A stretch of 40,000 nt of DNA from Paraglaciecola arctica BSs20135 (GTDB lineage Bacteria > Pseudomonadota > Gammaproteobacteria > Enterobacterales > Alteromonadaceae): NCBI RefSeq assembly GCF_000314995.1, contig NZ_BAEO01000027.1:177733-217732 (forward strand). Direction: 5' to 3'. The first letter of the stretch is position 1. Each line of letters opens with the position of its first letter. This document shows positions 3,735-22,335 of the stretch, one piece after another. The translations under genes and the position numbers were made by a program. The notes beneath the pieces are model-generated. The model was not told the origin of the DNA and did no database searches. It saw only the letters and a program-made list of their open reading frames with translations.

Positions 3735-3749
3735 AAATGCACGATAGCC

Positions 3750-5129: not shown

Positions 5130-6356
5130 TCAAACTGCCAACATATCTTTCATTGAGATATCTACATTAGCCAATTTATCTTCTGCAACTATGATGTTTT
5201 CGATGATTAATTTTTTACCTATCATGAATTCCGCTGGGCTATTTACCGCATCAACGGCAATAACACGCTGTTCAAGTAAATAAAATACCGCAAAACGTCG
5301 GCCTTGTTGTATATCCCCACGAACCACGAATGAGTCGTAGCCTTGTGATAAACCAGCGATTTGTAGTTTCATGTCATATTGATCAGACCAAAACCAGGGC
5401 AAGGTGTTATATGCGACTTGTTTACCACATAGGTACGCTGCTGCCGTTTTAGCTTGTTCGGTAGCATTTTGTACCGACTCTAACCGTATATGTTTTTTAT
5501 AAATAGGATTGTAATGCCAAGCACAGTCGCCGCTTGCAACAATGTCAGGATCGCTTGTACATGCAAACTCATTAACTTCAATACCATTACTGACGGTTAA
5601 ACCCGCTTGTTGTGCAATTTCTTGATTGGGTAATACACCAACACCTACAATGATAAGATCCGCTGGATAACGATCATTATTAGTACACACAACAGTGTTT
5701 TGATTTATTTGTGGTTCAATGGAAGAAACAATAACTTCAGTAACAATTTTCACACCTTCTTCAGTGTGAACTCGAGTATAAAATTCGGATAATGGCGGTG
5801 CAGTAACGCGCTCCAAAACTCTGGGCATCATTTCTAATACTGTTACATCCATTCCAAGTTTACGTAGGACTGCGGCGGTTTCTAAGCCGATATAACCACC
5901 ACCAATAATTATAGCTTTTTTGTCTTTTATGGCCAAGGTCTTGATATAGTCAACATCTTTAGCTGTTTTTAAATAAGATATTCCTGAGAGTTCAGCGCCT
6001 GGTATCGCTAATTTTCTTACTTTTGACCCGAGTGTAAGTGCTAACTTATCGTAATGAAGTATGTCACCATTGTTTAACGTTATTGTTTTATTGTCAGGAT
6101 CAATCGCTTGCAGACCAACCCCTAACTTAAATTCTATTTGTTGCTTTTCGTAAAACGCTGCCGGTCGTATGAGAATATTACTTAATTCTTTTGTACCCGC
6201 TAGATAAGCTTTTGATAAAGGAGGGCGGTGATAAGGTAAAGCGTCTTCGTCACCGACAATAAGAATACGCCCTTTCCAACCTTCTTGGCGTAGGCTAACA
6301 CTCATTTGTGCCGCACTATGCCCAGCACCTATGATAATACAGATTTTGTCTAACAT
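5130..6356 (-). CDS. FAD-dependent ferredoxin--NAD(P)+ reductase (putidaredoxin/rubredoxin-reductase class)
   Basis: The 408-aa ORF has two dinucleotide-binding motifs (IIIGAGHSAAQ at the N-terminus; IIIGGGYIGLETAA mid-protein), YHRPPLSK, and a C-terminal reductase dimerisation-type region (PWFWSDQYD). Confidence 0.88.
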   Translation of the reverse strand: MLDKICIIIGAGHSAAQMSVSLRQEGWKGRILIVGDEDALPYHRPPLSKAYLAGTKELSNILIRPAAFYEKQQIEFKLGVGLQAIDPDNKTITLNNGDILHYDKLALTLGSKVRKLAIPGAELSGISYLKTAKDVDYIKTLAIKDKKAIIIGGGYIGLETAAVLRKLGMDVTVLEMMPRVLERVTAPPLSEFYTRVHTEEGVKIVTEVIVSSIEPQINQNTVVCTNNDRYPADLIIVGVGVLPNQEIAQQAGLTVSNGIEVNEFACTSDPDIVASGDCAWHYNPIYKKHIRLESVQNATEQAKTAAAYLCGKQVAYNTLPWFWSDQYDMKLQIAGLSQGYDSFVVRGDIQQGRRFAVFYLLEQRVIAVDAVNSPAEFMIGKKLIIENIIVAEDKLANVDISMKDMLAV

Positions 6357-6498
6357 TATTTTACCCCACTCTTAAAAATACTATCTTGTTAAGGCAGCTG
6401 ATCTTTACTGAATTAATTTTGTTTAAATCCAAAGTCTTTTGACCGCGGCAAGTAACAGTAAACACACGCCTAAGCTCATTAGTCCTAGTATTTGACGA

Positions 6499-7443
6499 CT
6501 AACTTGTTTTTTGACGTCGGGTTTCTGAATCTAACCCCCCTAGTACTCCCCATTCGGCATAATTTTCAGGCGTTGGGTCTAAATTAAGACGTGGTTTCCA
6601 ATCGCGGGTTAAATAATCTTCATCGGAGTAATATTCTACCTGGCCGCCGCCTGGACATTGAAAATACCAGAAAAATGCAGATGAAATAGGATGACGGCCT
6701 GGACCGATAAGGGTATCCCATTTACAGCCACTAAAATGTAGGCCTCCACCCACCACTTCATATATATCGCGCAACAAAAAGGAAACATGATTAATGCCTT
6801 TTTTGCGGTTAGGAACTTTTAGTAAGAATAAGTTGTGATGAGTTCCTTCTTCGACACAGCGACTGAAGAACCCGCGGTTTGGATAAGCATCGGTGATGTT
6901 GAAGCCTAATAAATCTATGTAAAAACGTTGATGCGCCTCCAGATCTTCAACAAAGAAAACCACATGGGCAATACGTATAGGGGTGGCTCTATCATAAACT
7001 GGAGCAGGTAAATCAACCCGTAAAGGTTGATCATAGGTATTGCAAGGCGTGCCTTTAACATTGGCTTTTTGGCATTTGGTCACTTGGAAACCAATAGAGA
7101 GGCCGTTTGGATCAGTGCAACGGGCAATACCATCATCTCCCCAAGTAATATCGACACTTGAAGATATTTTATCAACGAAACTATGAAGTGCAGTTTGGTT
7201 TGTCACTCCCCAAATAACTTCACGTACTGTGGGACCCACTTCTATCGCCTTGGGCAATTGAGGATCTGCAGTTTTACGTAAGATAATTTGCGATTTTTCT
7301 AACGTTTCTAATACCTTAATATCCGTTTCATCTTTTACTAAATTTAGGCCCCAATCGGAAAAAAATTGACTCGCTTGCTGCATGTCATCAACACCGTAAA
7401 TTACTTTTTCTATACCAGTTAAACAGTTCATGATTTGTTCCAA
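6499..7443 (-). CDS. VOC/glyoxalase-family two-domain extradiol-type dioxygenase
   Basis: The 314-aa ORF contains two VOC modules. Module 1 is VIYGVDDMQQASQFFSDWGL. Module 2 is IAHVVFFVEDLEAHQRFYIDLLGF followed by HHNLFLL and INHVSF. Confidence 0.75.
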   Translation of the reverse strand: MEQIMNCLTGIEKVIYGVDDMQQASQFFSDWGLNLVKDETDIKVLETLEKSQIILRKTADPQLPKAIEVGPTVREVIWGVTNQTALHSFVDKISSSVDITWGDDGIARCTDPNGLSIGFQVTKCQKANVKGTPCNTYDQPLRVDLPAPVYDRATPIRIAHVVFFVEDLEAHQRFYIDLLGFNITDAYPNRGFFSRCVEEGTHHNLFLLKVPNRKKGINHVSFLLRDIYEVVGGGLHFSGCKWDTLIGPGRHPISSAFFWYFQCPGGGQVEYYSDEDYLTRDWKPRLNLDPTPENYAEWGVLGGLDSETRRQKTS

Positions 7444-7451
7444 AATTTAAG

Positions 7452-8258
7452 TTAAATATGCTTATTCATACCACCAGACACATCGATAGTGCTGCCTGTG
7501 GTATAAGAAGATGCTGGGGAAGCCAGATACAATAATGCTTTGGCCGGTTCTTCAGGATGACCAAATCTAGCGAGTGGAATATTTTTTTGTTTAGCTAAGT
7601 GACCAAGCCAGGTTTGGTATGATTCAGTATTCGGTTCATTTAGAAATTTGGCATGAGCATATCGTTTTTGCCATTGCCCAGACTCTATGGTGCCGAGTAA
7701 AATTGAATTTACCCGGATGCCCTTGCAGGCAAATTCTTTGGCCATACTTTGAACCAAGTTTAATAAACCCGCTCTGGCCGCTGAGGTAGCAACCATATGA
7801 GGCTCGGGTTGTAACGCCAGCAAGGAGTTAACACAAACTATCGAGGCATCTACTGAACCTTCTAATAAAGGTAGTAATGCTTGAGTTGGATAAATTACCC
7901 CAAAAAACTTTAAATTTAACTCGCTTAACCATGCTTCATCTGTGGTATCTACAAATTTTGAGACTCGGCCGCCGCCAGCGTTATTTATTAACGCATTTAT
8001 GTGACCAAAGCGTTTTTCAATCGCATTAGCAAAAGTAGCTAATTGATCTTTATCCAATACATCACAACAATGAGCTAAAATATTACTCTCAGGATATTGA
8101 CTCTCTAATTGGGTTAACGTCTCAGCTATTGTTGATTCATTACGTGCACAAAATGCCACATTTGCGCCTTCAGCTAATAATAATTTAACTGTAGCTAAAC
8201 CAATTCCTGATGTGCCACCCGTTACAACAACGGTTTTATTTTTAAGGCCTAAGTCCAT
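7452..8258 (-). CDS. Short-chain dehydrogenase/reductase (SDR)
   Basis: TGGTSGIGLA (the TGxxxGIG cofactor motif), NNAG, and a Ser...Ala-x3-Ala-type active-site region. The catalytic Tyr appears to be replaced (SAARAGL), so this may be an atypical SDR. Confidence 0.8.
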   Translation of the reverse strand: MDLGLKNKTVVVTGGTSGIGLATVKLLLAEGANVAFCARNESTIAETLTQLESQYPESNILAHCCDVLDKDQLATFANAIEKRFGHINALINNAGGGRVSKFVDTTDEAWLSELNLKFFGVIYPTQALLPLLEGSVDASIVCVNSLLALQPEPHMVATSAARAGLLNLVQSMAKEFACKGIRVNSILLGTIESGQWQKRYAHAKFLNEPNTESYQTWLGHLAKQKNIPLARFGHPEEPAKALLYLASPASSYTTGSTIDVSGGMNKHI

Positions 8259-8273
8259 GTGTTTAACTCCTCT

Positions 8274-9140
8274 TTATTGTTTAATTTTATTACCGATAAA
8301 GCTAAGCAATAAACGTTCAAAAACATTTGCTTGCTCAATATAGGCTGCATGCCCTGCATCGGGTATTTTTTGAAAAATACTCGACTGACAAACCTTTGCC
8401 ACCAAAAGTGCATTTTCTTCTGGCACCACAATATCCTCTGCGCCATATAACACTAATACTGGCTTAGTGTAGTTTTCTATATCCGCAATTAAATCAGAGG
8501 AAACTAGCAGTGACGCCGCCTGGCTATAGCCGTAATGTCTTAAGCGACGAGTATTGAATTGGACAATGTCAAAGGCTGTCTGCTGGGCGTTGGCAGAGAG
8601 TAGGCGTAACGGACTGATGTTGGCCATGCCTTCCACACCAGTTTTTTCTATATCTGCGATACGCGCATTTAGTAATTCATCGCGTATTTTTTTAGAGCTC
8701 TTACCGTATCCTAAGGCTGGGTTGACTAAAGTCAGCGATTGTATTTTATCAGGCCAACTCTTAGCAAAAGCCGCAGCAACAATGGCACCCAATGAATGAC
8801 CTACTAAATGAATTTTATCAAGTTGCAAATGAGTGATAAACAACAATAACCGTTCGGCATATGCTTGGCTTTCTGAGGGGGAATCGGCCATTAAACTGGA
8901 ATCACCATAACCAGGCGCATCCCACGCGATTAATCGGCATCCGCCAAATTTACTTTCCAATTGCTGCAGCCATGAAGCTGAACCAGAGCCAATACCGTGT
9001 AAAAAGACAATTGTTGTGGTGCTCTTAACGCCATTTTCTCGATAGGAAATAGCGATTTCCTTTTCGGTCATTAACTGTAAAGGGTATTGGGCTAATCTAG
9101 CCGTTATTTGTTGAAAACGCTCAACACTATCATTTGTCAT
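8274..9140 (-). CDS. Alpha/beta-fold hydrolase (meta-cleavage-product hydrolase-like)
   Basis: The 288-aa ORF has an HGIGSGS oxyanion region, the nucleophile elbow GHSLGA and a C-terminal DAGHAAY histidine motif. Confidence 0.8.
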   Translation of the reverse strand: MTNDSVERFQQITARLAQYPLQLMTEKEIAISYRENGVKSTTTIVFLHGIGSGSASWLQQLESKFGGCRLIAWDAPGYGDSSLMADSPSESQAYAERLLLFITHLQLDKIHLVGHSLGAIVAAAFAKSWPDKIQSLTLVNPALGYGKSSKKIRDELLNARIADIEKTGVEGMANISPLRLLSANAQQTAFDIVQFNTRRLRHYGYSQAASLLVSSDLIADIENYTKPVLVLYGAEDIVVPEENALLVAKVCQSSIFQKIPDAGHAAYIEQANVFERLLLSFIGNKIKQ

Positions 9141-9184
9141 TAATCATCTACTCATTCATTTAATAGGAATATCCACAACGCCAA

Positions 9185-9724
9185 CTAAATATCACGCTTG
9201 ATTTTTGATAGAGGGTGGTAATCAGGATAGGTAGGGATTTGGGGTTTACCAGAGCCTAACATAACAAACATTAGTGCTTCCTCTTGCCCAATATTATTTA
9301 AACCACGGTATATTCCAGCGGGAACAGAAACCAGATCTCGTTCTTTTAATATGGTGGTGTATCGTTTGTCACCATCTTCTAAAAATAACTTAATTGTTCC
9401 TTTGTAAACAAAAAATACTTCTTCTACATCATGGTGTACATGCATCGGACCTTCACAGCCTGACGGTAAACACATGGTTGAAAACGTAAAGTTTTCTGCC
9501 GCCACTACATTCATGTCAGAGCTAACACCTGCTGCCCCCGTGCCTAAGTATCTCACTTGTGCACGACGGTAAACCGGATTATAGTCGGCTTGAAATTTTA
9601 GGGCATTCCAATCATACTTTCGACTTTCAAAGCGAGCGATTCGAGATTCAATTTGTTCACCAAATCCAGCGTCAATTTCGACATTTTTAAATAACTTTTC
9701 GTTTGTTACATTGTTCTCTGTCAT
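9185..9724 (-). CDS. Cupin-domain protein
   Basis: The 179-aa ORF has cupin motif 1 (GPMHVHHDVEEVFFV) and a motif-2-like PAGIYRGLNN. Confidence 0.7.
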   Translation of the reverse strand: MTENNVTNEKLFKNVEIDAGFGEQIESRIARFESRKYDWNALKFQADYNPVYRRAQVRYLGTGAAGVSSDMNVVAAENFTFSTMCLPSGCEGPMHVHHDVEEVFFVYKGTIKLFLEDGDKRYTTILKERDLVSVPAGIYRGLNNIGQEEALMFVMLGSGKPQIPTYPDYHPLSKIKRDI

Positions 9725-9808
9725 TATTTCTTCCTCACTATTATTAGAAATTAATTGGTTATATAAAGTCCGGTAAGGTGCTAGATATTTTTAAATATCC
9801 TCAACTTA

Positions 9809-10558
9809 CTAATTCATCACGAAACCACCGTTTATGGGCAATAACTGGCCTGTGATAAAGCTAGCACTGTCTGATAGTAAGAAGTTCACTACACCAACTA
9901 CATCTTCTGGCAGTTGAGCTCTAGAAATTGCACGTCCATCTCGATACTGTTGATGACGTTCTTCAGGCACATATTCTGTCGCTTCAACTAATGTTAGCCC
10001 TGGCGCTATGGCGTTAACACAAACATTGTCGTTACCTAATTCACGTGCCATCGATTTTGTCATCGCAATAATCGCGCCCTTACTCGATACGTAGTGGAGT
10101 AATTTAGGCGCCCCCCAAAGTGCGGTATCAGAGGCCATATTGACAACTTTTGCATTGCCTGATTGACGTAAAAAAGGAGACGCTGCACGTGTCATTAGCC
10201 AGGTGCCTCGTACATTAACGTTCATGACTTTGTCCCATACGTCAATATCAATATCTTCCATTGAGACTCCGCCAATACCTGTCGCTATAGCGCCATTATT
10301 AACTAACCCATCTAGGCCACCTAGTATTTCCACTGATTGTAAAACGCACTTCTCAATGCTCTTTGGATTAGCTAAGTCTACTTTGACAAAATGAGCGTTA
10401 TAACCTGATTTTTGCAAACTGTTGGCTAGCGCAGAACCTTCATCTTCTAAAATATCGGCGATAACAATATGGGCGCCTTTCTCCACTAAGCTCATGGCGA
10501 AAGCTAGGCCTAAACCGCGTGCAGAACCCGTGACAATTACACGTTTACCTTTAAGCAT
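9809..10558 (-). CDS. Short-chain dehydrogenase/reductase (classical SDR)
   Basis: TGSARGLGLA, NNGA, the catalytic S...YVSSK (YxxxK) and a C-terminal ITGQLLPINGG. Confidence 0.88.
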   Translation of the reverse strand: MLKGKRVIVTGSARGLGLAFAMSLVEKGAHIVIADILEDEGSALANSLQKSGYNAHFVKVDLANPKSIEKCVLQSVEILGGLDGLVNNGAIATGIGGVSMEDIDIDVWDKVMNVNVRGTWLMTRAASPFLRQSGNAKVVNMASDTALWGAPKLLHYVSSKGAIIAMTKSMARELGNDNVCVNAIAPGLTLVEATEYVPEERHQQYRDGRAISRAQLPEDVVGVVNFLLSDSASFITGQLLPINGGFVMN

Positions 10559-10607
10559 TACTTACTCTTTTTAAGATAATTAATTGAATTAATCGGCATT
10601 TGCTAAG

Positions 10608-10919
10608 TTATAAATAAACATATATTTCACCCGCATCTAGCCGAATATCGTATTTAATGAGATCTCTGCCCGGTTTACGTAAACATTGACCGCTGGGGAT
10701 ATGAAACAATGCATTATGAAAAGGACATTGCACTGTTTCAATCACCGTCTTTCCTTGTGATAACAAGAAAAAGTTTTGTGCATGGGGACAAGCATCTTCT
10801 AAGGCGTAATAGTGGTCATTCAGGTGGTACAGGCCAATATATTGGCCTTCAATCTGTAATGTGAGTTTCTTATGTTCAATCAACTCAGATTCAGTTGCCA
10901 AAAATAACCAAGACGCCAT
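10608..10919 (-). CDS. Rieske-type [2Fe-2S] ferredoxin (oxygenase ferredoxin component)
   Basis: The 103-aa ORF has the ligand pattern CPH...x17...CPFH (ACPHAQNFF...VQCPFHNALF). Its size and layout resemble BphF/HcaC-type ferredoxins. Confidence 0.85.
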   Translation of the reverse strand: MASWLFLATESELIEHKKLTLQIEGQYIGLYHLNDHYYALEDACPHAQNFFLLSQGKTVIETVQCPFHNALFHIPSGQCLRKPGRDLIKYDIRLDAGEIYVYL

Positions 10920-10927
10920 TATTTGCT

Positions 10928-13546
10928 CTATTCAAACGAAACTTTCAAAGAAAGGTACGCTTGTCTGCCTAATGCGCTATGCGTTAACGGGTCATAGCCA
11001 CTTCGTGAAATAACATCAGGAGCTTGTTCATCAAATAAGTTTTTGACGCCTAAAGTTAGAGCTGCAAGCGTGCCGTCTTTGAATTGAGAGCCAAGGTCAT
11101 AGTTAAATTGCATATCAACTGTGGTAAAACTATCAATACTATTGTCAGAGTTATCATCTTCATAATCACTGACGTGACGTACAAATATGTTACTAGAATG
11201 CAGCTCACCTTTCCAAGTAACCCCTATAGCTCCTCGAAGTGCAGGCATAGGTACACCAAAGTTAGTGAAGTTTCGTTGATTTTTGCCATCAATATTACCG
11301 GCAATAGGATCTTCAAGATCGTAAGTTAAGACATAACTGGTATTAACGGATAACTCAATTTCACCTATATTTGTATCAAAACCTTTATTAATTGACACAT
11401 CAATTCCGTCGGTTTCCAAAACTCCTGCATTTCTGAAAAAGGTGGTCACTGTGGTTAATTGGCCACTGTTAGGATCTCGTTCAAGTTGATCACCGTAGGG
11501 GTCGTTGGCAACTAGTGCCGTAGCGTTTTCTGGGGTAATAAATTTATCGTAACTAAAACGCCAGTAATCGATGCTCGCTGAAAAATCATTATCAGGTAAA
11601 AACCAGGTTGCACCAAGGTTATAAGTATCTGAGGTTTGCGCAGTTAAAGGATTCTCTTGATCACCTTCGGTTCTTTGTGAAACCGTTGCTAAGGCATTAG
11701 TTAGCGGATCTAGAACCCGCGAAGGTACAGTTAAACCGCCGGCGGTTTGAAACAAAGAAGGTGCCTTAAATGATTCTCCGTAAGTACCTCGGAAGCTGAG
11801 TTGCTCAAAGAGCCAAATAAAGCCAATTTTAGGATCTACCGTATCAAAATTACCGAGGTCTTCATAACGTAGCGCCGTTTGAATATTCAAACCTGCAAAA
11901 ACGGGGATATCCACTTCCACAAATACCGCAGAAGCATCACCATCGGTGGTGAAACTATTATTACCTCGGAAAAAGTACAAGTTATCGTTTTCTGCAGCAT
12001 CGTTATAATCATATTCAAGTTCATTTTTACGATACTGAACACCCGCAGCAAGAGCTACAGTGCCCTCCGGCAGTTCAAATATTTCACCTGAAACATGAGC
12101 ATCAAAAGTGGTTAATTTAGATGTTGCTTCAAAAGCATAAGAACCTTTGAAATCTTCAATAACACTAGGGTCATTTTGGGCGCCATAGAGTGGGTTATAA
12201 AACAAATCATTATTGGGGCCACCTTGACCGACTAAGGCTGCTTGAAAACGATCGACTAAGGTATCCGAGGAATCGTTATAATTATAGACATTTTCACTGT
12301 GTCCAACGGCTGCTTGCCAACTCCAATTGTCATCTAACTCACCCTTTAAACCAAACACGGTACGCCATGTAACGGATCCAATATCTATTATGCTAGCATC
12401 TGAACTTGTTCCAAATGGACGTCCAAAAAATAGTGCACCTTGAGTATTACCTACTGCAACTGCTGATGGGTTTGTTGGTGGAATGAAAGGAGGAAATAAA
12501 ATGGGTTGCGAAGGTGAGCTTGTAGTTAGGATCTTATTATCGTTATAACCTATTTCGGCAAATAATGATGTGTCATCAGATAGATCGCTATTAAATTCGG
12601 CGTAAACTTGACTTCTTTGTTCTTCAGCAACCATGCTGAAATAGTCACCAAAGTCAAAATTACAAAAGCCAGCAGCATTGATTCCTGTGGTGGTTTCAGG
12701 GTGTTCAGCCGCGACTTGTTCACAACTTGGGTCTGCTACAAATTGAGGCGCACCAGCGTCTTGAAAAACTAAAAAAGTGCCTGGATTACCAAAGGTACTA
12801 TTGGCATCCCTAAGTTCAAATTCGTCACTACGGGTGGCTGCGGATAATGGGGACCTATCGAAATAACTGGCTGCCAAAATCAGGTTGCTATTATTAAACT
12901 CGTGGCCATATAAGACACTAAATTGGCCGTCATTCTGACTATCACTGGTGGTTGATTTATAATCCAAATTAAAATCTAAACCAACAAAATCACTTTTGGT
13001 ATTAAAATTAGCCACTCCAGCTACAGCATCAGAGCCATATAGCGATGATGCACCATCTTTTAAAATTTCGACACGTCCGATAGCAATGGTAGGCACGAGT
13101 GAATTTAAATCGGTAAATTGATCACCGTTTAATGTAGTGGCCGCAGTATTCACTTGGCGTCGACCGTTTAATAAAGTCAAAGTTGAACTAACACCTAACC
13201 CACGAAGATTGATATTAGATGTACCTAATGAAAATGTTTGATTAAAACCGTCATTATTGTTTTGTGAGCCAGCATTTATTGATAGTGAATTGACAATATC
13301 AACCGCGCCAAATGCACCTATTTTTTCGATATTGCCAGCATCAATAATTTCAACGGGTGAAGGTCTGTCGGCTTGTTCTTGACGTTTTATGTAACTCCCA
13401 ATCACACCAATCACTTCAACGTCGTTACTGGCTAATTTTCCACCGGATCCCGGTGACTCTACTGCCAATGCTGACGAGACTGCTATTACTGATGTTAATA
13501 ACGTCGTCGCTAATTTTGTTGCTTTATTTGTTTTTGGATTTTTCAC
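10928..13546 (-). CDS. TonB-dependent outer-membrane receptor
   Basis: It has a plug domain (EVIGV..., NINLRGLG, RVEILKDGASSLYGSDAVAGVANF) and a long beta-barrel with a terminal aromatic motif (YLSLKVSFE). I prefer the GTG at 13546, which has GAGGA 7 nt upstream and gives the clean signal peptide (M)KNPKTNKATKLATTLLTSVIAVSSALA. The ATG at 13591 is the alternative ORF-track start. Confidence 0.9.
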   Translation of the reverse strand: MKNPKTNKATKLATTLLTSVIAVSSALAVESPGSGGKLASNDVEVIGVIGSYIKRQEQADRPSPVEIIDAGNIEKIGAFGAVDIVNSLSINAGSQNNNDGFNQTFSLGTSNINLRGLGVSSTLTLLNGRRQVNTAATTLNGDQFTDLNSLVPTIAIGRVEILKDGASSLYGSDAVAGVANFNTKSDFVGLDFNLDYKSTTSDSQNDGQFSVLYGHEFNNSNLILAASYFDRSPLSAATRSDEFELRDANSTFGNPGTFLVFQDAGAPQFVADPSCEQVAAEHPETTTGINAAGFCNFDFGDYFSMVAEEQRSQVYAEFNSDLSDDTSLFAEIGYNDNKILTTSSPSQPILFPPFIPPTNPSAVAVGNTQGALFFGRPFGTSSDASIIDIGSVTWRTVFGLKGELDDNWSWQAAVGHSENVYNYNDSSDTLVDRFQAALVGQGGPNNDLFYNPLYGAQNDPSVIEDFKGSYAFEATSKLTTFDAHVSGEIFELPEGTVALAAGVQYRKNELEYDYNDAAENDNLYFFRGNNSFTTDGDASAVFVEVDIPVFAGLNIQTALRYEDLGNFDTVDPKIGFIWLFEQLSFRGTYGESFKAPSLFQTAGGLTVPSRVLDPLTNALATVSQRTEGDQENPLTAQTSDTYNLGATWFLPDNDFSASIDYWRFSYDKFITPENATALVANDPYGDQLERDPNSGQLTTVTTFFRNAGVLETDGIDVSINKGFDTNIGEIELSVNTSYVLTYDLEDPIAGNIDGKNQRNFTNFGVPMPALRGAIGVTWKGELHSSNIFVRHVSDYEDDNSDNSIDSFTTVDMQFNYDLGSQFKDGTLAALTLGVKNLFDEQAPDVISRSGYDPLTHSALGRQAYLSLKVSFE

Positions 13547-14111: not shown

Positions 14112-14175
14112 AATATTCCTACTTACTTAATCGCTTAACCTTTGATTTATTTAGTGTTTAACCGTTTAAATTTGA

Positions 14176-15233: not shown

Positions 15234-15266
15234 TTTATTCTCCTACCGTATTAAATCTGCTTAAAC

Positions 15267-15566: not shown

Positions 15567-15661
15567 ATTTTATCTCCATCGCACTTTATTTTTATAAATA
15601 ATATATTTCTGGAATTAATATTCCTGCCAAATTTTTTTAGTTGAGTTGGTTACTTTTATTG

Positions 15662-16939
15662 TTATGTTTTTACTTCACTTAATCTTGGGTATGGAGTCAT
15701 GAAATAAAACAAAACACAGGAAAAAACACTCATGATGCAAGCAAAGGTTAATACATACTGATAAGACCCCCAGTACTCATAACTTAGACCCAATAGGTAG
15801 GGGCCAATACCAGCACCAAGTAGAAAGCCCGCTAAAGCATAACCATATATTTGAGCAAAACTTTTTAAGCCAAAATAACGACCAACTAAGTAACCAATTA
15901 GATCACTTTCAGCACCAAACCCGAGGCCTATTAAAAAGACAGAAAGGAATATCCATATTGTTGAGCTAGCATCCACCAAGATACCTAACCCTAGAGCTGC
16001 AAGAGAGAAAAAGAAAATAGCTATATAAGGTGCAAAAAATCTGTCTAATAAATAGCCGACGACTATACGGCCCACAAAAGTTGCCAAGCCCATTACTGAG
16101 GCTGCGGTTGCAGCCAAAGTTGCGGTTAATTGTCGGTCTTTTAATAAAGGTACTATATGTGGTAAAAGGCCGGTCAAAAACATCGACATAATAGTAATTG
16201 CTGTACACATCAACCAGAAGTTACGTGTTTTTATAGCTTCACTGGCTAATAAACCTGAAAGAATAGGTTTTTCTGTTGCTATGGTATCGACATTGTTGGG
16301 TTCATTGCGGATAACAAAGCTGATCAATGGTAATGATATTATCATCACTAACATTGCTAAGGCATAATATGCAGAGCGCCAATCAGCAATGTCGAGTACT
16401 GTTTGTACTAAAATTGGCATGACCATATAACCTAAACCTAAACCCGAAGCAGCGATACCTATACTCAATCCTCTGCGCTTATTAAACCAAGATGATAAAA
16501 GCCTTATATAAGCAATACTTTGTGCACCAGTTGAAACAATGCCAGTGATAAATGATATACAATAAAAAAGTTTTAAGGAATGTAGGCTAAAGGGTATAAC
16601 GGCTATCGTCAGCCCCATCAGAACGACCGATGGAATTAATACTTTTTTCACTCCAAAACGGTCAATTAAGCGGCCAATAAAAGGTGCGGCCAAAATGGAT
16701 GCAAAAGTAAATATAGTAAGGGAAAGCATTAATTCTGATCGGCCCCAATTATATTCTTGCTGCAACGGTAATAATACAACGCCCAGGGTACCAAATATAA
16801 GTGGTCCTGGACTGAACATCATCCCAACTACGGAGACAAAGAGTACTTTCCAACCAAAGTAAGATTTTGAATTTTCATTCTCTATAGATAACTGAGTATT
16901 TTTCAATTTAAACACCTGTGTCGTAGATTTGATGGTCAA
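15662..16939 (-). CDS. MFS transporter
   Basis: The 425-aa ORF has about 12 hydrophobic segments and an MFS loop 2-3 signature (GRLIDRFGVKK). Confidence 0.85.
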   Translation of the reverse strand: MTIKSTTQVFKLKNTQLSIENENSKSYFGWKVLFVSVVGMMFSPGPLIFGTLGVVLLPLQQEYNWGRSELMLSLTIFTFASILAAPFIGRLIDRFGVKKVLIPSVVLMGLTIAVIPFSLHSLKLFYCISFITGIVSTGAQSIAYIRLLSSWFNKRRGLSIGIAASGLGLGYMVMPILVQTVLDIADWRSAYYALAMLVMIISLPLISFVIRNEPNNVDTIATEKPILSGLLASEAIKTRNFWLMCTAITIMSMFLTGLLPHIVPLLKDRQLTATLAATAASVMGLATFVGRIVVGYLLDRFFAPYIAIFFFSLAALGLGILVDASSTIWIFLSVFLIGLGFGAESDLIGYLVGRYFGLKSFAQIYGYALAGFLLGAGIGPYLLGLSYEYWGSYQYVLTFACIMSVFSCVLFYFMTPYPRLSEVKT

Positions 16940-17010
16940 TATTCAATATAAACAATTTGTTTAATTAAAAACTTGTGCCTTCTTTTATATTAAATCCATC
17001 TTAAAAAATC

Positions 17011-17021
17011 AAACAATGTTT
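17011..17021. promoter_or_regulatory. Candidate operator AAACAATGTTT (MFS-proximal)
   Basis: AAACA-A-TGTTT palindrome, 72 nt from the MFS start codon (16939). Confidence 0.4.
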
Positions 17022-17082
17022 CCAATATAAAACAACATTAATCCGCTATTGAGCTAAAGTCAAGAAAATTACAATAGGCTAT

Positions 17083-17109
17083 AACATTAATTTAAATTCA
17101 ATTAATGTT
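17083..17109. promoter_or_regulatory. 10-bp perfect inverted repeat in the divergent promoter region
   Basis: AACATTAATT (17083-17092), spacer TAAATTC and AATTAATGTT (17100-17109). It shares the AACATT core with the other sites. Confidence 0.3.
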
Positions 17110-17260
17110 AAGTTAAATCATTGTTATTTAAAGGTTTAATTAATATTTAATTTCTGTTTAAAGATATTTCCTAGTATGTTTTTTCACAAATAAATAGGTT
17201 ATTTGATTAAGTTGCTTACTTGACAACTAATCGAAATACATTAACAATGCTTCAAATATG

Positions 17261-17271
17261 AAACATTGTTT
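17261..17271. promoter_or_regulatory. Candidate operator AAACATTGTTT (ThDP-enzyme-proximal)
   Basis: Embedded in GAAACATTGTTTTC, 72 nt from the ATG at 17343. This mirrors the 72-nt spacing of the 17011 site. A degenerate copy, TTAACAATGCTTC, lies at 17241-17253. Confidence 0.4.
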
Positions 17272-17342
17272 TCATTTTTCTTGGGTCGTACAGGTAATTA
17301 CCAAGAGTGATTTAAGCGTAATCTAATTAGGAGATAACTAAC

Positions 17343-19019
17343 ATGAACAGTAAAAACGATGAGTTTGAAGAAGATGGTACTGTAGGTGAGTTAATAGCAA
17401 AATTTTTAGTTGCCTGTGAACTCGATGCTGCCTTTGGTGTTATTAGTATTCATAATATGCCAATTTTAGATGCCTTCGCTAAATACGGAAAAATCAATTT
17501 TGTGCCTAGTAGAGGCGAAGCAGGCGGTGTCAATATGGCTGATGCCTATGCAAGAGTACGTGGCAACTTAGGTGTTGCTGTTACAAGTACAGGTACAGCT
17601 GCTGGTAATGCTGCGGGAGCATTAGTTGAAGCGTTTACCGCAGGCACACCTTTATTGCATATCACTGGCCAGATAGAGTCAGAACATATTGATCGTGACC
17701 GGGCCTATATTCACGAAGCTCCTTTTCAACTTGAAATGTTACAATCGGTATCAAAATTTGCTTATCGTATTTGGTCACCTGAAAGCGCTTTAGGGATATT
17801 GCGAGAAGCCGTACAATGTGCGTTAACACCTCCTCGTGGCCCAGTTAGCATAGAAATCCCAATTGACGTACAAAAAGCTCAAGTTAAGTTCCCAGTAAAT
17901 TTCTCTCCTTTACCTATTGTAGAAACCCCATTGCCGACTGATCAAGTTGATCAATTAATAGCACAATTTAAAACTGCAAAAAGGCCGATGTTATGGCTTG
18001 GTGGCGGTTCTCGACATGCCGCTAAAGCAGCTGAACGTTTAGCGAATATGGGCGTGGGTATTGTGACCAGTACTAATGGCCGCGCTGTTGTAAGTGAAGA
18101 CCACCCCATGTCAATCGGCGCTTTCAATGCCACTCCCTTTTCCGAAAAATTATACCAAAGTGTCGACCTTATGGTAGTGGTGGGCTCTCGCTTGAGAAGT
18201 AATGAAACATGGAATTATGATCTTGCTTTACCCAAAAATTTAATCGTGGCTGATCTCGATTCCAAAGCCGATGGGAAAACTTATAAGAATAATGGTTTCA
18301 TTTATGCTGACAGTAATAAATTATTAACCTATTTGGCTGATAATCTAGAAGGTCAGCTCAATCTTGACCCGGATCTGCCTGTCAGTATTAGAGAAACTCG
18401 CGAACAATCGGAAGCAGCGTTACGAAAAGGGTTAGGTCCTTACAACGATTTAGTTAACCAATTGCAAGATTTATATACTAATGATATGCCTTGGGTGCGT
18501 GATGTAACATTGTCGAACAGTATGTGGGGAAATCGTCTACTTAAAATTGCAGAACCATTAAATGGCGTACATGCATTGGGGGGTGGTATTGGCCAAGGAT
18601 TACCTATGGGTATAGGTGCTGCCGTTGCCGCCGGAGGCAAAAAAGTTATTACCCTAACAGGCGATGGTGGACTGAATCTTTGTATAGGAGAAATCGCTAC
18701 AGCTGCTCAAGAAAAAGTAAACATGACATTGTTAATTATGAATGATTCCGGATATGGCGTAATTCGTAATATTCAAGATGCTGATTATGGTAGCCGCCAA
18801 CACTACTCTTCAATTCAAATTCCGGATTACCGCTTAATTAGTGAATCTGTGGGCATACCGTTTTTTAGAGTCAGTAAGATTTCCGATTTTTCAGACATTA
18901 TGAAACAAGCCTTATCCATAGACGGACCGGCAGTTGTTGAAGTTGACATGGTTACAATTGGCCCATTTAACACTAGTTTTGCGGGGCCACCTAAGCGTAT
19001 TAAGGAAGATGAAGCATGA
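17343..19019 (+). CDS. Thiamine-diphosphate-dependent enzyme (acetolactate synthase/benzoylformate decarboxylase superfamily)
   Basis: The 558-aa ORF has an N-terminal Pyr domain (GVISIHNMPILDA, GEAGGVNMADAYAR) and the C-terminal ThDP motif GDGGLNL...x...MNDSGYG. There is a strong SD (AGGAGA) upstream. Confidence 0.88.
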   Translation: MNSKNDEFEEDGTVGELIAKFLVACELDAAFGVISIHNMPILDAFAKYGKINFVPSRGEAGGVNMADAYARVRGNLGVAVTSTGTAAGNAAGALVEAFTAGTPLLHITGQIESEHIDRDRAYIHEAPFQLEMLQSVSKFAYRIWSPESALGILREAVQCALTPPRGPVSIEIPIDVQKAQVKFPVNFSPLPIVETPLPTDQVDQLIAQFKTAKRPMLWLGGGSRHAAKAAERLANMGVGIVTSTNGRAVVSEDHPMSIGAFNATPFSEKLYQSVDLMVVVGSRLRSNETWNYDLALPKNLIVADLDSKADGKTYKNNGFIYADSNKLLTYLADNLEGQLNLDPDLPVSIRETREQSEAALRKGLGPYNDLVNQLQDLYTNDMPWVRDVTLSNSMWGNRLLKIAEPLNGVHALGGGIGQGLPMGIGAAVAAGGKKVITLTGDGGLNLCIGEIATAAQEKVNMTLLIMNDSGYGVIRNIQDADYGSRQHYSSIQIPDYRLISESVGIPFFRVSKISDFSDIMKQALSIDGPAVVEVDMVTIGPFNTSFAGPPKRIKEDEA

Positions 19020-19807
19020 TTAAAATTGGTCTAATTGGTTTTGGTGCTATCGGTCAGTGCGTGATAGCAACGCTACCAAAAGCGCTGACTGAAGAATATC
19101 AAGTTGTCGGAATCTTAACGCGAAAAAATATCGATAACTTGGTCAATGACATTTCTTCTTATACCAATATAGACCAGTTACTAGCGCAGCATCCTGACAT
19201 TATTGTGGAATGTGCCGGCCATGATGCAGTTAAAGAATATGGTTGCAAAATTTTAGCCGCCAATATCTCTTTAGTTATTTCATCAATAGGCGCACTAGCT
19301 GATAGTCATTTATATGAGCAACTTAAGCATGCTTCAACGAATAGTCAGGCTAAAATATATCTGCCCGCTGGTGCAATTGGAGGTATTGATGCCCTTGTTG
19401 CCGCAAAACTTGGTGGCCTTAATGAGGTGACTTATACCATGCGGAAACCTCCTAAGGCATGGTTAGGTACGGTAGCTGAGGCTTTGGTTGATTTAAATGG
19501 TTTACAACAGGCTGAAGTGATTTTTTCGGGCTCAGCGGGTGAAGCGGCAACACTTTATCCTAAAAATACTAATGTAACAGCGACTATAGCGTTAGCAGGG
19601 TTAGGCTTTGAAGAAACGAAAGTACAATTAATTGCTGATCCTGAAATCGAAGACAATATACATGAAATATGGGTATCTGGAGAAACGGGTAGCTTTACTA
19701 TTGTATTAGCAGGAAAACCATCTAGCTATAATCCCAAAACGTCAGCATTAACGGCTTTTAGTGTCACTAATTGTGTCGCTAATTTTGGTTCTTCGATTAT
19801 TATTTGA
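19016..19807 (+). CDS. Aspartate-dehydrogenase-like (NadX/DUF108 family) oxidoreductase
   Basis: The 263-aa ORF has an N-terminal Rossmann motif (IGLIGFGAIGQ), an ECAGH motif and a GAIGGIDAL block typical of the AspDH family. Its start overlaps the upstream stop (ATGA), so the two are translationally coupled. Confidence 0.7.
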   Translation: MIKIGLIGFGAIGQCVIATLPKALTEEYQVVGILTRKNIDNLVNDISSYTNIDQLLAQHPDIIVECAGHDAVKEYGCKILAANISLVISSIGALADSHLYEQLKHASTNSQAKIYLPAGAIGGIDALVAAKLGGLNEVTYTMRKPPKAWLGTVAEALVDLNGLQQAEVIFSGSAGEAATLYPKNTNVTATIALAGLGFEETKVQLIADPEIEDNIHEIWVSGETGSFTIVLAGKPSSYNPKTSALTAFSVTNCVANFGSSIII

Positions 19808-19824
19808 ACTTATAGGAGTTTACA

Positions 19825-21303
19825 ATGTTTGACAATAAAATACTTGTAGGTGGAGAATGGAAGCGCGGTACAGGAGAACTAATTAAATCAATTAATCCCG
19901 CCAACGGTGAGCTGATAACTGAATTTAATGGTGCCAGTTTAGAAGATGTTGATATTGCTGTTGCTGCAGGTAAACGTGCTATGTACGAACCTACATGGTA
20001 TGACTTAAAACCACATAAACGCGCTGCTATTCTAAATAACATAGCCACGTTAATCCGTCGTGATGCGGACAAATTAGCTAAACTACAAATGTTGGATACA
20101 GGTAAATGTTTATCTGAAACTAAAGCTCTCGTTCAAAGTGCTGCCGACACATTTCAATATACAGCCGCAGCACTTGAAATCCAAGAAGGAGAATTGCCTC
20201 CTTCGCGCGGCGACTTTTTCACTATGAGCGTTTACGAACCAATGGGCGTTATTGCAGCAATAACTCCGTGGAACTCTCCAATAGCGAGTGATGCTCAAAA
20301 GATCGCGCCTGCCTTAGCCGCTGGGAATGCCGTGGTGATAAAACCAGCAGAATGGACGTCATTGGTTTCGTTGGCGTTAGCCAGAATTTGCTTAGAAGCG
20401 GGATTGCCAAAAGGGTTATTATCGGTTTTACCCGGCCCAGGCTCGGTTATTGGTGACAAGCTAGTCCGTCATCCTGATGTTAAAAAAGTATCCTTTACTG
20501 GTGGTACAGCAACAGGTAGACATATTGCAGGTATTGCTGCAGCTAAATTAATGCCCGTATCCTTAGAACTTGGCGGGAAATCACCTACAATCGTTTTTGA
20601 AGATGCCGACATAGAACACGCTATTAATGGCATATTGTACGGTATTTTTAGTTCTACAGGACAATCTTGTATTGCTGGTTCACGCTTATTCGTTGCCGCT
20701 AAAATTTATGAGAGCTTCATAAATAAACTGGTTGCCCGCTGTCAAGCATTGAATGTGGGATTGCCTGATGACAGCACAACACAAGTTGCGCCTTTAGTTT
20801 CATTTCAACATCGTGACGTTGTGGCAAACTATGTAGAAATCGCAAAAAAAGAAGGTGCTAAAATTTTATGTGGTGGTGAGCTTTTGCAAGGCCAACCTTA
20901 TGATAGTGGCGCATTTTATCCCCCCACAATTTTATCGGGTTTAGATAATAGCGCTCAAACCTGTCAAGAAGAAATATTTGGTCCTGTACTTGTAGTATTG
21001 CCTTTTGATAATGAGCAAAATCTTATTCAACAAGCCAATGATTCAGTATTTGGTTTAGCTTGTGGTTTATGGACTAAAGACTATAAAAAGGCACTCGCTT
21101 TTTCTCAAAAAATTGCCTCCGGCACCGTTTGGATCAATACCTATAAACAATTTAGTATTGCTACTCCTTTTGGTGGCGTCAAAGAAAGTGGATTAGGACG
21201 AGAAAAAGGTCGTAATAGTATTCAAGGATATATGCAACAGAAAAGCCTTTATTGGGGGTTAAATGAAGAACCACTAATTTGGGCTAATAGTAGAACTAAA
21301 TAA
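19825..21303 (+). CDS. NAD(P)+-dependent aldehyde dehydrogenase
   Basis: The 492-aa ORF has the catalytic Glu block LELGGKSP, the catalytic Cys block GQSCIAGSR, FTGGTATG, and EEIFGPV...PFGGVKESGLGRE. Confidence 0.92.
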   Translation: MFDNKILVGGEWKRGTGELIKSINPANGELITEFNGASLEDVDIAVAAGKRAMYEPTWYDLKPHKRAAILNNIATLIRRDADKLAKLQMLDTGKCLSETKALVQSAADTFQYTAAALEIQEGELPPSRGDFFTMSVYEPMGVIAAITPWNSPIASDAQKIAPALAAGNAVVIKPAEWTSLVSLALARICLEAGLPKGLLSVLPGPGSVIGDKLVRHPDVKKVSFTGGTATGRHIAGIAAAKLMPVSLELGGKSPTIVFEDADIEHAINGILYGIFSSTGQSCIAGSRLFVAAKIYESFINKLVARCQALNVGLPDDSTTQVAPLVSFQHRDVVANYVEIAKKEGAKILCGGELLQGQPYDSGAFYPPTILSGLDNSAQTCQEEIFGPVLVVLPFDNEQNLIQQANDSVFGLACGLWTKDYKKALAFSQKIASGTVWINTYKQFSIATPFGGVKESGLGREKGRNSIQGYMQQKSLYWGLNEEPLIWANSRTK

Positions 21304-21531
21304 CAATGAGCAGAATGTTTTTTATGGGCGTGGTTCGATATTTTATTTGGTTAGTTCTAAACTCTCATAATTGGATATCGAACATTTCACTATCCCCCTT
21401 TATTGCTTAAGCTCTGAGCAGATAATATATTTGGAATACTATTGTTATCTGATCTTTGCTGTTAGAATATTTGGTTTTATATATAAAACAAACTTATTGC
21501 GCTGTGCTTAAATTAGGGGATTAATTACGAC

Positions 21532-22335
21532 ATGGAAAATGTATTACAGATTACTGAATCAGAGCAAGCGAATCGCTATATGGTACCTGGATTGGTCCGT
21601 GGATTGAAAATATTGCAGGCTTTTAGTAGTGAAAAACCTTTCATGGGCGTGTCAGATATAGCCAAAGAATTAAATGTGTCACGCTCAACGGCATTTCGTC
21701 TCTCCTTAACGCTAGAAAGTATGGGTTTTTTGAAACGTGTCGAACACTCAAAAAAGTATTGTTTAGGTTTAAAAGTCTTAGATCTTGGTTTTAAACTATT
21801 AGCTGGTATGGATATCGTTGACATTGCCAGGCCTCATATGGAGGAGCTAAGCGAAAGTACAAAAGTGTGTTCGCATCTTGCTGTGCGAGATGGAATTAGT
21901 GTGATCTATATTGCTAGAATACTAGGTAAGCATCACATTGTAAGTTCGGTTGGTGTGGGTACTCGTTTTCCAGCTTATGCTACGTCGTCTGGCCGAATAT
22001 TGCTCTCAAATCTATCTGTTGCTGAACTTGCCACTTTATACGAAGGTATTGAGTTAAAAAGAATCACGGAAAATACACCTATAACCATAGGTGATCTTAT
22101 TAATCAAATAGAACAAGATAAATCAAATGGCTACACATTGAGTTGGGAGTCGTACGAAGAAAATCTAGCGAGTCTTGCTGTGCCGATAAGAGATAATACC
22201 AAAAAAATCATTGCATCTCTTAATATTAGTTGCTCAACGACAACCTATAGTAAAGATGAATTATTGAAGCGAGTACTGCCGCAATTATTGCAAAAAGCGA
22301 CAAGTATCTCGACAGCTTTGGGTTATAGGAATTAA
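21532..22335 (+). CDS. IclR-family transcriptional regulator
   Basis: The 267-aa ORF has an N-terminal wHTH (VSDIAKELNVSRSTAFRLSLTLESMGFL) and a C-terminal IclR effector domain (GTRFPAYATSSGRILLS; NLASLAVPI). Confidence 0.9.
   Translation: MENVLQITESEQANRYMVPGLVRGLKILQAFSSEKPFMGVSDIAKELNVSRSTAFRLSLTLESMGFLKRVEHSKKYCLGLKVLDLGFKLLAGMDIVDIARPHMEELSESTKVCSHLAVRDGISVIYIARILGKHHIVSSVGVGTRFPAYATSSGRILLSNLSVAELATLYEGIELKRITENTPITIGDLINQIEQDKSNGYTLSWESYEENLASLAVPIRDNTKKIIASLNISCSTTTYSKDELLKRVLPQLLQKATSISTALGYRN

Follow-up and report, generated by a model that had tools for sequence, protein, structure and literature searches.

An inserted gene island of Paraglaciecola arctica resembles a widespread aromatic catabolic operon that has only generic annotation

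Paraglaciecola arctica BSs20135 carries a cluster of genes for a Rieske oxygenase, an extradiol-type dioxygenase, a thiamine diphosphate (ThDP)-dependent enzyme and a TonB-dependent receptor (TBDR). We analysed the surrounding 40,000 nucleotides (contig NZ_BAEO01000027.1, positions 177,733 to 217,732, forward strand). This stretch is hereafter called the window, and positions are those of the window unless stated otherwise. Comparisons of sequence indicate that the cluster is a laterally inserted catabolic island of 18.8 kb. It is a variant of the aromatic catabolic islands and has a lower pathway that is still uncharacterised. Thirteen of its genes are a marine copy of a widespread operon whose annotation is only generic. 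We consider it very probable both that the island belongs to this operon and that it forms a single regulon. With a probability of roughly 45%, we further propose an IclR-controlled catabolic regulon for a benzo-fused nitrogen heteroaromatic acid, kynurenate being the best candidate. A previous reading of the same DNA, made from the sequence and its open reading frames (the sequence-only reading), had described an oxygenase island for a meta-cleavage-like route. That interpretation is partly supported.

Families were assigned using the open reading frame (ORF) list and Pfam and NCBIfam scans of the window proteins. Every gene named previously is an open frame, at the position and of the family proposed. 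There are three units. Unit 1 (16939 to 13797) encodes a transporter, a PF20552 protein, the oxygenase and a Fer2 ferredoxin. Unit 2 (13546 to 5130) contains eight genes, from the TBDR through to a ferredoxin reductase. Unit 3 (17343 to 21303) encodes the ThDP enzyme, an Asp_DH_C protein and an aldehyde dehydrogenase (ALDH), and an IclR gene follows. The genes are listed below.

15662–16939, minus strand: major facilitator superfamily (MFS) transporter, monocarboxylate/oxalate-formate type (Pfam/NCBIfam)
15267–15566, minus strand: 99-residue PF20552 'HTH_62' protein (Pfam)
14176–15233, minus strand: alpha-only Rieske/VanA_C oxygenase, frameshifted (two open frames; main ORF 14328–15233)
13797–14111, minus strand: second ferredoxin, adrenodoxin/ISC [2Fe-2S] type (Fer2)
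10928–13546, minus strand: TBDR (Plug plus barrel)
10608–10919, minus strand: Rieske-type [2Fe-2S] ferredoxin (Pfam; CPH...CPxH invariant)
9809–10558, minus strand: SDR1, a classical short-chain dehydrogenase/reductase (SDR) (S143, Y156, K160)
9185–9724, minus strand: cupin, 179 residues (HxH...E motif present)
8274–9140, minus strand: alpha/beta-fold hydrolase (Ser116-Asp236-His264 triad and HGxGS oxyanion loop intact)
7452–8258, minus strand: SDR2, an atypical SDR, NF005468 (397 bits against a cut-off of 266)
6499–7443, minus strand: two-domain extradiol catechol dioxygenase of type I, the vicinal oxygen chelate (VOC) class (active-site residues)
5130–6356, minus strand: glutathione-reductase-type ferredoxin-NAD(+) reductase (Pyr_redox_2 plus Reductase_C)
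17343–19019, plus strand: ThDP-dependent enzyme, NF005470 (802 bits against a cut-off of 495)
19016–19807, plus strand: aspartate dehydrogenase (AspDH)-family protein, Asp_DH_C (start overlaps the ThDP gene by 4 nt)
19825–21303, plus strand: NAD(P)-dependent ALDH (Pfam/NCBIfam)
21532–22335, plus strand: IclR-family regulator, PcaR/PcaU-like (Pfam/NCBIfam)

The TBDR start at 13546 is the likely one; it gives a signal peptide and then a TonB-box-like VEVIGV sequence. Between the AspDH-like gene and the ALDH gene there are 17 nt. The 17 island genes other than that for the oxygenase are all intact.

The combination of enzymes is not peculiar to this island. It is that of a widespread conserved operon with generic annotation. 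An alignment of the oxygenase, used to scan named genomes, matched at least 548 loci. The best 80 of these include Burkholderia, Paraburkholderia, Caballeronia, Acinetobacter calcoaceticus and Zobellella, and also Thiolinea, Glaciimonas, Ferrovibrio, Reyranella and metagenome-assembled genomes of Rhodospirillaceae. The oxygenase was also found in Acinetobacter baumannii, Klebsiella, Cupriavidus, Ralstonia and Novosphingobium. For A. baumannii the whole operon was confirmed, and the annotated products are all generic. The Paraburkholderia xenovorans LB400 operon is on chromosome 2 (NC_007952, ~3.163–3.184 Mb).

The sequence-only reading had called for a comparison of gene neighbourhoods. We compared the window proteins with 85 loci using tblastn. 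Counts are over the 65 loci with full 10-kb flanks, which are not independent since 40 of them are from Burkholderiaceae. A core of 13 genes recurs around the oxygenase in most of these loci. In addition to the oxygenase, it consists of the ThDP enzyme, the cupin, the PF20552 protein and the IclR regulator (62/65 each), the hydrolase (61/65), SDR1 (59/65), SDR2 (57/65), the VOC enzyme (56/65), the AspDH-like protein (53/65), the Rieske ferredoxin (52/65), the reductase (51/65) and the ALDH (49/65). The second ferredoxin was found in one locus of the 65, and the TBDR, this type of MFS transporter and the malic enzyme described below in none. All 13 genes lie within 17 kb in the window, in the metagenome contig L011 and in Burkholderia, Thiolinea, Acinetobacter and Zobellella loci. 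Orthologues in the loci examined are 32–71% identical. Besides the 13 genes together, the window has the signature residues of the operon, namely the T...R pair of SDR2 and the Arg of the cupin, and the PF20552 gene beside that for the oxygenase.

In Burkholderia the genes usually form one 13-gene operon. Two blocks, with a different MFS gene between them, are found in Acinetobacter and Zobellella. One block contains the genes for the Rieske ferredoxin, PF20552 protein, oxygenase, SDR1, VOC enzyme and reductase, the other those for the cupin, hydrolase, SDR2, AspDH-like protein, ALDH and ThDP enzyme. Thus, the operon elsewhere is made of one or two co-directional blocks, whereas the window has three units around a divergent promoter. 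The full three-unit layout is present in two diverged metagenome contigs, L011 (oxygenase 84% identical) and L014 (74%). Because of this synteny, and of the recurrence of the core in the 65 loci, the arrangement is far from chance. In the 6-Mb contig L018 (oxygenase 59% identical), genes for the PF20552 protein, oxygenase, an SDR, cupin, hydrolase, IclR, an SDR, VOC enzyme, ThDP enzyme and AspDH-like protein form a single operon. Three other loci (L016, L017 and L020) have a transporter, PF20552 protein, oxygenase, and SDR1 and/or VOC enzyme, without the ThDP, AspDH-like and ALDH trio. More than 6000 protein clusters match the ThDP enzyme at E ≤ 1e-100.

Compared with the operon of other lineages, the window adds the TBDR, a different MFS transporter, the second ferredoxin and the malic enzyme. 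The TBDR was found only in conspecifics of the window, in L011–L013 and in L014, and this type of MFS transporter only in the marine variant. Other lineages have other transport genes: a porin in LB400, a different MFS transporter in Acinetobacter and Zobellella, and a NitT/TauT-type ATP-binding cassette (ABC) system in Thiolinea and Rhodospirillaceae. When the flanking ORFs of the 85 loci were clustered, the NitT/TauT ABC genes were the only accessory genes to recur across lineages; kynurenine-pathway genes were not among the recurring neighbours. Hence, the link to a TonB receptor, from which the island had been named, is specific to one lineage. The TBDR is, on this distribution, a marine addition to an old and widespread operon.

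The relatives L011 and L014 have further genes. Sulfatase genes (PF00884 plus SGSH_C, likely signal peptide) are found at 6729–8417 of L014, within unit 1, and at 703–2340 of L011, beside the IclR gene. A gene of the dihydrodipicolinate synthase (DHDPS) family has been added to the island in L014 (17648–18544); this family includes NahE, the naphthalene hydratase-aldolase. The hydrolase region of L014 (14942–15814) is 43% identical to that of the window. Its called product has only 89 residues, and this copy may be degraded or miscalled.

We next consider regulation. Exactly three copies of the 11-bp palindrome AAACAWTGTTT are present in the window (13611, 17011 and 17261). By chance, 0.15 copies are expected, and none of 100 shuffled sequences reached three. 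One copy precedes each unit and all are in promoter regions.

13611–13621, no strand assigned: operator palindrome AAACATTGTTT, 65 nt upstream of the probable TBDR start at 13546
17011–17021, no strand assigned: operator palindrome AAACAATGTTT, 72 nt upstream of the MFS start
17261–17271, no strand assigned: operator palindrome AAACATTGTTT, 72 nt upstream of the ThDP start

The motif is found at the same three positions in L011 and L014, one L014 copy having a single mismatch. A palindrome before each unit, conserved in two diverged relatives, argues that the three units are one regulon. There is thus good comparative evidence for co-regulation of the units, with AAACAWTGTTT as the candidate operator. 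The units had already been proposed to belong together. The common operator bears this out, as does the co-inheritance of the genes across gamma-, alpha- and betaproteobacteria, where they often form one operon. The IclR gene is linked to the units that share the palindrome and is conserved together with the operon, and its product is the presumed binder. Just upstream of the 17261 box is a promoter-like TTGACA-17-AACAAT sequence. The position of the box tentatively suggests repression; promoter-like sites are no commoner in the region than in shuffled sequence.

The boundaries of the island were defined by comparison of the flanks with two genomes of the same genus, G016 and G023. In both, the ion-channel gene and the GGDEF-EAL gene are direct neighbours, ~25 bp apart. 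Therefore, the DNA between these genes in the window, ~18.8 kb, is best described as an insertion.

2768–3592: ion-channel gene (left flank)
~3596–22409, no strand assigned: inserted island (flanking genes ~25 bp apart in G016 and G023)
3750–4991, minus strand: malic-enzyme gene, second divergent copy (Pfam malic/Malic_M)
22410–24566: GGDEF-EAL gene (right flank)

The gene set of the ~17-kb island previously placed at 5130–22335 thus stands. Its extent does not, as the block is larger and includes the malic-enzyme gene. No integrase or transposase was found within the island, and its G+C content is unremarkable. A search of 24 genomes of the genus found no orthologue of the ThDP gene. Across 300 genomes of the class, a search with NF005470 at E ≤ 1e-150, a cut possibly too strict for orthologues of ~45% identity, matched the copy in the window and no other. 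At this threshold the search shows that the family is sparsely distributed in the class.

The malic-enzyme gene lies downstream of the reductase gene, and also adjoins it in L011, L012 and L104. The copy elsewhere in the genome (contig C8) is 77% identical to that of the island and resembles the copies in other genomes of the genus (74–79% identical). The island enzyme may point to malate or oxaloacetate as an end product. At the left edge of the island (~3700–3735, within 3690–3740) is a perfect inverted repeat with a 14-bp stem (CCCATAATGTAAGT / ACTTACATTATGGG). It is hairpin-like, lies in the gap that separates the ion-channel gene from the end of the malic-enzyme gene, and is probably a terminator. 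On the right, 22410–27464 is a small-GTPase/Roadblock/GGDEF-EAL operon. This is outside the island and native to the genus, being 79–86% identical in the closest same-genus genomes.

The enzymes predicted to attack the ring are the best defined. The oxygenase has the motifs CxH...CxxH and DxxHxxxxH...D, and belongs to the VanA_C, or homotrimeric, class. No beta-subunit gene is present in the island, which sets the enzyme apart from two-subunit (alpha/beta) dioxygenases. Its best sequence matches in the PDB are CarAa, enzymes of the phthalate family and 2-oxoquinoline monooxygenase. The similarity is mostly in the Rieske domain (76 bits, residues 20–188), and for the catalytic domain the PDB search found no close solved structure. 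The gene for the VOC enzyme encodes H160, H203, H219, H251, Y260 and E270, invariant in 68 orthologues. These align with H155, H200, H214, H248, Y257 and E267 of homoprotocatechuate 2,3-dioxygenase (HPCD). The 2-His-1-Glu site is formed by H160, H219 and E270, with H203, H251 and Y260 in the second sphere. With six of six active-site residues in place, the VOC enzyme is predicted to be a genuine extradiol catechol dioxygenase, in keeping with the earlier proposal of ring attack followed by extradiol cleavage. SDR1 is of the classical type and adjoins the oxygenase in orthologous loci for which gene order was examined; it is therefore a candidate cis-dihydrodiol dehydrogenase.

Electrons could reach the oxygenase by more than one carrier. 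The reductase best matches AndAa and HcaD, both below the NCBIfam cut-off, and the Rieske ferredoxin is closest to the AndAb and HcaC types. Alongside one oxygenase and one reductase, the island encodes two types of ferredoxin, the Rieske-type protein of the core and the accessory adrenodoxin-type protein. Beyond the marine variant, the latter was found in L094 alone. Reductases with Pyr_redox_2 and Reductase_C domains are known to reduce both types of ferredoxin. The two proteins are possibly redundant.

The PF20552 protein is a constant companion of the oxygenase. In the 62 full loci where it was found it lies near the oxygenase, in many directly upstream, and it is also beside the oxygenase in loci without the lower pathway. 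An AlphaFold2 model has a confident C-terminal three-helix bundle (residues 45–97) after a disordered N-terminal 40 residues; a fold search against the PDB gave no significant match. PF20552 carries the label 'recombinase-like HTH'. Candidate roles are assembly factor, effector or regulator of the oxygenase.

The remaining enzymes combine intact and altered active sites. In SDR2 the YxxxK motif is replaced by T158...R162 in all 72 orthologues, and the nucleotide-binding motif TGGxSGIG is normal. The enzyme possibly reduces a C=C bond. The cupin has an invariant Arg140 in place of the motif-2 His, a strongly conserved N-terminal extension of ~75 residues, and 56–71% identity to distant orthologues, which places it among the most conserved core proteins. 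Fold searches matched it to generic metal cupins only, e.g. quercetinase and oxalate oxidase. The signature residues of SDR2 and the cupin are invariant across 72–80 orthologues and present in the window copies. The hydrolase is the least conserved core protein (35–43% identity to distant orthologues). It had been assigned as a C-C hydrolase, and this is not clear. In NCBIfam it scores highest against 3-oxoadipate enol-lactonase types, with HsaD and BphD lower and all far below cut-off; PDB matches to HsaD, MhpC and BphD reach only 60–68 bits.

In the ThDP enzyme, the activating Glu (E59) and GDG(440–442)...N467 are invariant. The nearest characterised family is that of AruI, 5-guanidino-2-oxopentanoate decarboxylase, a 2-oxo-acid decarboxylase. 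A PDB search found no close solved structure, cyclohexane-1,2-dione hydrolase being a distant match. The AspDH-like protein has an invariant catalytic H216 and NPKTS block, and scores 305 bits with the subfamily model NF009828. It is likely to be a member of the aspartate dehydrogenase family. Aspartate as its substrate is doubtful; the gene context is catabolic, and nadA and nadC are not nearby. Pfam found no 2-oxopent-4-enoate hydratase, 4-hydroxy-2-oxovalerate aldolase or acylating acetaldehyde dehydrogenase among the 18 island proteins. The meta-cleavage-like route of the sequence-only reading is weakened by this absence of a hydratase, aldolase and acylating dehydrogenase.

The proposed pathway would operate as follows. 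An aromatic carboxylate would cross the outer membrane via the TBDR and the inner membrane via the MFS transporter. Uptake by these two proteins, as already suggested, is reasonable; both are within the regulon. The alpha-only oxygenase would then dihydroxylate the benzenoid ring, electrons passing from the reductase to the Rieske ferredoxin and on to the oxygenase. SDR1 would re-aromatise the cis-diol to a catechol, and the VOC enzyme would open the ring by extradiol cleavage. Because the hydratase and aldolase are absent, the resulting 2-oxo-enoate side chain is taken to remain on the second ring. Reduction by SDR2, decarboxylation to an aldehyde by the ThDP enzyme and oxidation by the ALDH would shorten it by one carbon. 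Finally, the cupin and hydrolase would open the remaining nitrogen ring, and the AspDH-like enzyme would handle an imino or amino acid. Since L016, L017 and L020 hold the upper block without the ThDP trio, the oxygenase probably acts on the imported compound and the trio downstream.

Confidence differs between parts of this scheme. Dioxygenation followed by extradiol cleavage is likely. For a nitrogen heteroaromatic acid as the substrate we see an even chance. Kynurenate itself is a tentative choice, less likely than not. In its favour, a review (PMC10732645) reports growth on kynurenic acid for A. baumannii, one organism that carries the complete operon. ThDP enzymes can have substrates that include carboxylates adjacent to a ring nitrogen (PMC12746152). 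The compound 5-(2'-carboxyethyl)-4,6-dihydroxypicolinate is listed as belonging to the tryptophan pathway.

Several observations weigh against the proposal. The substrate assignment is tentative, and the roles given to the cupin, hydrolase, SDR2 and AspDH-like protein have chemical plausibility only. For none of the seven enzymes searched against the PDB was there a close solved relative. Translational coupling joins the ThDP, AspDH-like and ALDH genes; this would be more simply explained if the three enzymes catalysed consecutive steps, which they do not in the kynurenate scheme. Kynureninase is present in the genome and tryptophan 2,3-dioxygenase was not found there. Therefore, kynurenate would have to come from outside. 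Kynurenate does not account for the sulfatases of L011 and L014, nor for the DHDPS-family gene of L014. Lastly, the sole oxygenase of the island is frameshifted in this assembly.

The frameshift had been noticed before, and in this assembly it is real. The main oxygenase frame ends at 14328, and another frame stays open to 14176. An intact protein of 352 residues (P0001), 99% identical to the window oxygenase, reads through the break. P0001 is encoded by nine contigs from other samples, and the three of these that were examined all have the same island at the same chromosomal site. The break is at a run of A (~14375–14380), with A4 in the window and A5 in L104, L105, L106 and L011. The island in this isolate could therefore be a recently inactivated relic, with a pathway that cannot start. 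The run is one base shorter than in three near-identical contigs and in the 84% relative. Furthermore, the frameshift drops the C-terminal ~66 residues and with them D300, which is invariant in 12 diverse homologues and, by analogy with KshA, would be the third iron ligand. Conversely, the 17 other genes are intact, and single-base errors in homopolymers are a common assembly artefact. We give inactivation appreciable weight, short of even odds.

Other explanations change the chemistry rather than the state of the island. The coupling of the ThDP, AspDH-like and ALDH genes (4-nt overlap, 17-nt gap) is as expected for consecutive steps. An aromatic alpha-amino acid could be deaminated by the AspDH-like enzyme, decarboxylated by the ThDP enzyme and oxidised by the ALDH to an aryl-carboxylate one carbon shorter, with the ring enzymes (Rieske oxygenase, SDR1, extradiol dioxygenase and hydrolase) acting afterwards. 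Such logic is that of the phenylglycine/mandelate or Ehrlich routes. The AruI family works in a chain from amino acid to 2-oxo acid, aldehyde and acid, and the catalytic His of AspDH is conserved. However, L016, L017 and L020 have the oxygenase block without the trio, as if the oxygenase acts on the imported compound. The transporters are of the monocarboxylate MFS or NitT/TauT ABC types, not amino-acid permeases, and the cupin, SDR2 and missing hydratase and aldolase are left unexplained. An amino acid as the starting compound is thus unlikely. The sequence-only reading had favoured a carbocyclic aromatic, alicyclic, lignin-derived or algal substrate, degraded in a meta-cleavage-like manner with side-chain trimming by the ThDP enzyme and ALDH, and with no nitrogen chemistry. 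Consistent with this are the Rieske oxygenase, the genuine extradiol enzyme and a hydrolase that has a Ser-Asp-His triad and is related to HsaD, MhpC and BphD. TBDRs import aromatic compounds in other bacteria, and ThDP enzymes can cleave cyclic 1,2-diones, cyclohexane-1,2-dione hydrolase being the distant match noted above. Even so, an AspDH-family protein with an intact active site, in 53 of the 65 loci, favours an amino or imino substrate, and together with the transporter types it points to an aromatic acid that contains nitrogen and away from alicyclic or algal carbon compounds. The nearest matches of the electron-transfer proteins are those of anthranilate dioxygenase, and the oxygenase is closest to the carbazole, 2-oxoquinoline and phthalate types. 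The lower meta-pathway genes are missing from the island, and the core operon is commonest in soil Burkholderiaceae and clinical Acinetobacter and Klebsiella, not in degraders of algal polysaccharides. We regard a carbocyclic substrate as improbable.

A sulfate ester could also be the compound imported by the marine variant. In this case a sulfated hydroxy-(hetero)aromatic acid would enter via the TBDR, be desulfated in the periplasm and be taken up by the MFS transporter, this strain having lost the sulfatase or keeping it elsewhere. The sulfatases of L014 and L011 both have a likely signal peptide and share 45% identity along their whole length, and a TBDR suits a larger or scarcer substrate. 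Neither the window island nor its conspecific copies has a sulfatase, however, and the best homologue in the genome is 44% identical and ~167 kb away on the same contig. On these grounds we rejected a sulfatase as part of the island in this genome. The L011 and L014 sulfatases are also much less alike than are the other island proteins to their window copies, and may be independent recruits. We consider a sulfate ester very doubtful. Our preferred reading therefore remains a regulon for a benzo-fused nitrogen heteroaromatic acid. In its most specific form, the operon would supply the missing genes of the kynurenate branch of tryptophan catabolism in bacteria, with a new lower route made up of the atypical SDR, the ThDP decarboxylase, the AspDH-fold enzyme and the His-to-Arg cupin. 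The marine version would use the TBDR to collect kynurenate, or one of its sulfated or hydroxylated relatives, from seawater. This we offer as a possible rather than a probable account.

Carriers of the core operon include the Burkholderia cepacia complex, A. baumannii and Klebsiella, with gene names that are all generic. Assigning the substrate would thus annotate thousands of genomes at once. Kynurenate, if correct, would provide sequences for three orphan EC (Enzyme Commission) numbers and tie bacterial growth to a host immunomodulatory metabolite. The window contributes exact insertion boundaries and a conserved candidate operator. It also contributes a lineage-specific transport layer, the outer-membrane step being swapped between lineages (TBDR, porin or none), as well as an extra ferredoxin, a malic enzyme and a broken oxygenase allele. 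If the frameshift is genuine, the window provides a natural oxygenase-null allele beside intact conspecific alleles.

No characterised pathway was found to match any component closely, as had been suspected, and the literature searched did not assign genes to kynurenate degradation or a pathway to this gene combination. For Pseudomonas aeruginosa PA3504–PA3508, which might be a further instance of the cassette, a literature search gave no functional information. Parts of the island do resemble known systems. It shares a type I extradiol dioxygenase with the canonical meta-cleavage pathways (bph/xyl/nah). Membership of these is ruled out by the absent lower-pathway genes and beta subunit. The lumichrome (riboflavin) operon of Nocardioides simplex combines ThDP decarboxylation with Rieske and extradiol dioxygenases (Sinha et al., 2025; PMC12746152). 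Its gene set comprises a P450, several amidases, a xanthine-oxidase-type enzyme, an alpha/beta Rieske oxygenase and a split 20+23-kDa ThDP enzyme (PMC12746152). The likeness to the island is in the nitrogen heteroaromatic substrate, proposed for the island, and in the use of ThDP, Rieske and extradiol enzymes. We rejected this pathway as a match because the gene set differs and the organisation is not homologous.

The closest parallels for the oxygenase are the alpha3 enzymes CarAa and OxoO. Like these, the island oxygenase is alpha-only, lacks a beta subunit and has the same motifs. In Pseudomonas resinovorans CA10, a separate ferredoxin of the Rieske type supplies CarAa, as would be the case for the island oxygenase. 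The difference is the PF20552 companion, which is not described for CarAa or OxoO and accompanies the island-type oxygenase in almost every locus. In naphthalene degradation (NahC, NahD, NahE and NahF), one ring of a bicyclic compound is cleaved; the 2-oxo-enoate arm left on the second ring is converted to an aldehyde and then to a carboxylate by an ALDH. The scheme proposed for the island is alike in keeping the side chain on the second ring and in ending via an aldehyde and ALDH. It differs in that the window has no hydratase-aldolase, and the SDR and ThDP decarboxylase would remove one carbon, not three. For the receptor, the comparison is with DdvT of Sphingobium sp. SYK-6, reportedly a TonB-dependent receptor for a lignin-derived biphenyl. 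The island TBDR is likewise within an aromatic catabolic cluster and apparently co-regulated with it, a likeness of context. Unlike DdvT, it is a lineage-specific addition to an operon that works elsewhere without one.

The classical kynurenate ('quinoline') pathway of pseudomonads is said to have been described by Hayaishi, Taniuchi and Dagley in the 1960s. Kynurenate 7,8-hydroxylase (EC 1.14.99.2) forms the 7,8-dihydrodiol, and dihydrodiol dehydrogenase (EC 1.3.1.18) converts this to 7,8-dihydroxykynurenate. The 8,8a-dioxygenase (EC 1.13.11.10) then yields 5-(3-carboxy-3-oxopropenyl)-4,6-dihydroxypicolinate. The route continues via the oxopropyl and formylethyl forms to 5-(2-carboxyethyl)-4,6-dihydroxypicolinate and glutamate. 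To our knowledge, the enzymes of this branch have had EC numbers since the 1960s and no assigned sequences. The dioxygenase, diol dehydrogenase and extradiol enzyme classes are adjacent in many operons orthologous to the island. By chemical logic, the island has an enzyme class for each described step of the kynurenate pathway, from the dioxygenase to the aldehyde oxidation, and it also has candidates for opening of the nitrogen ring and formation of an amino acid.

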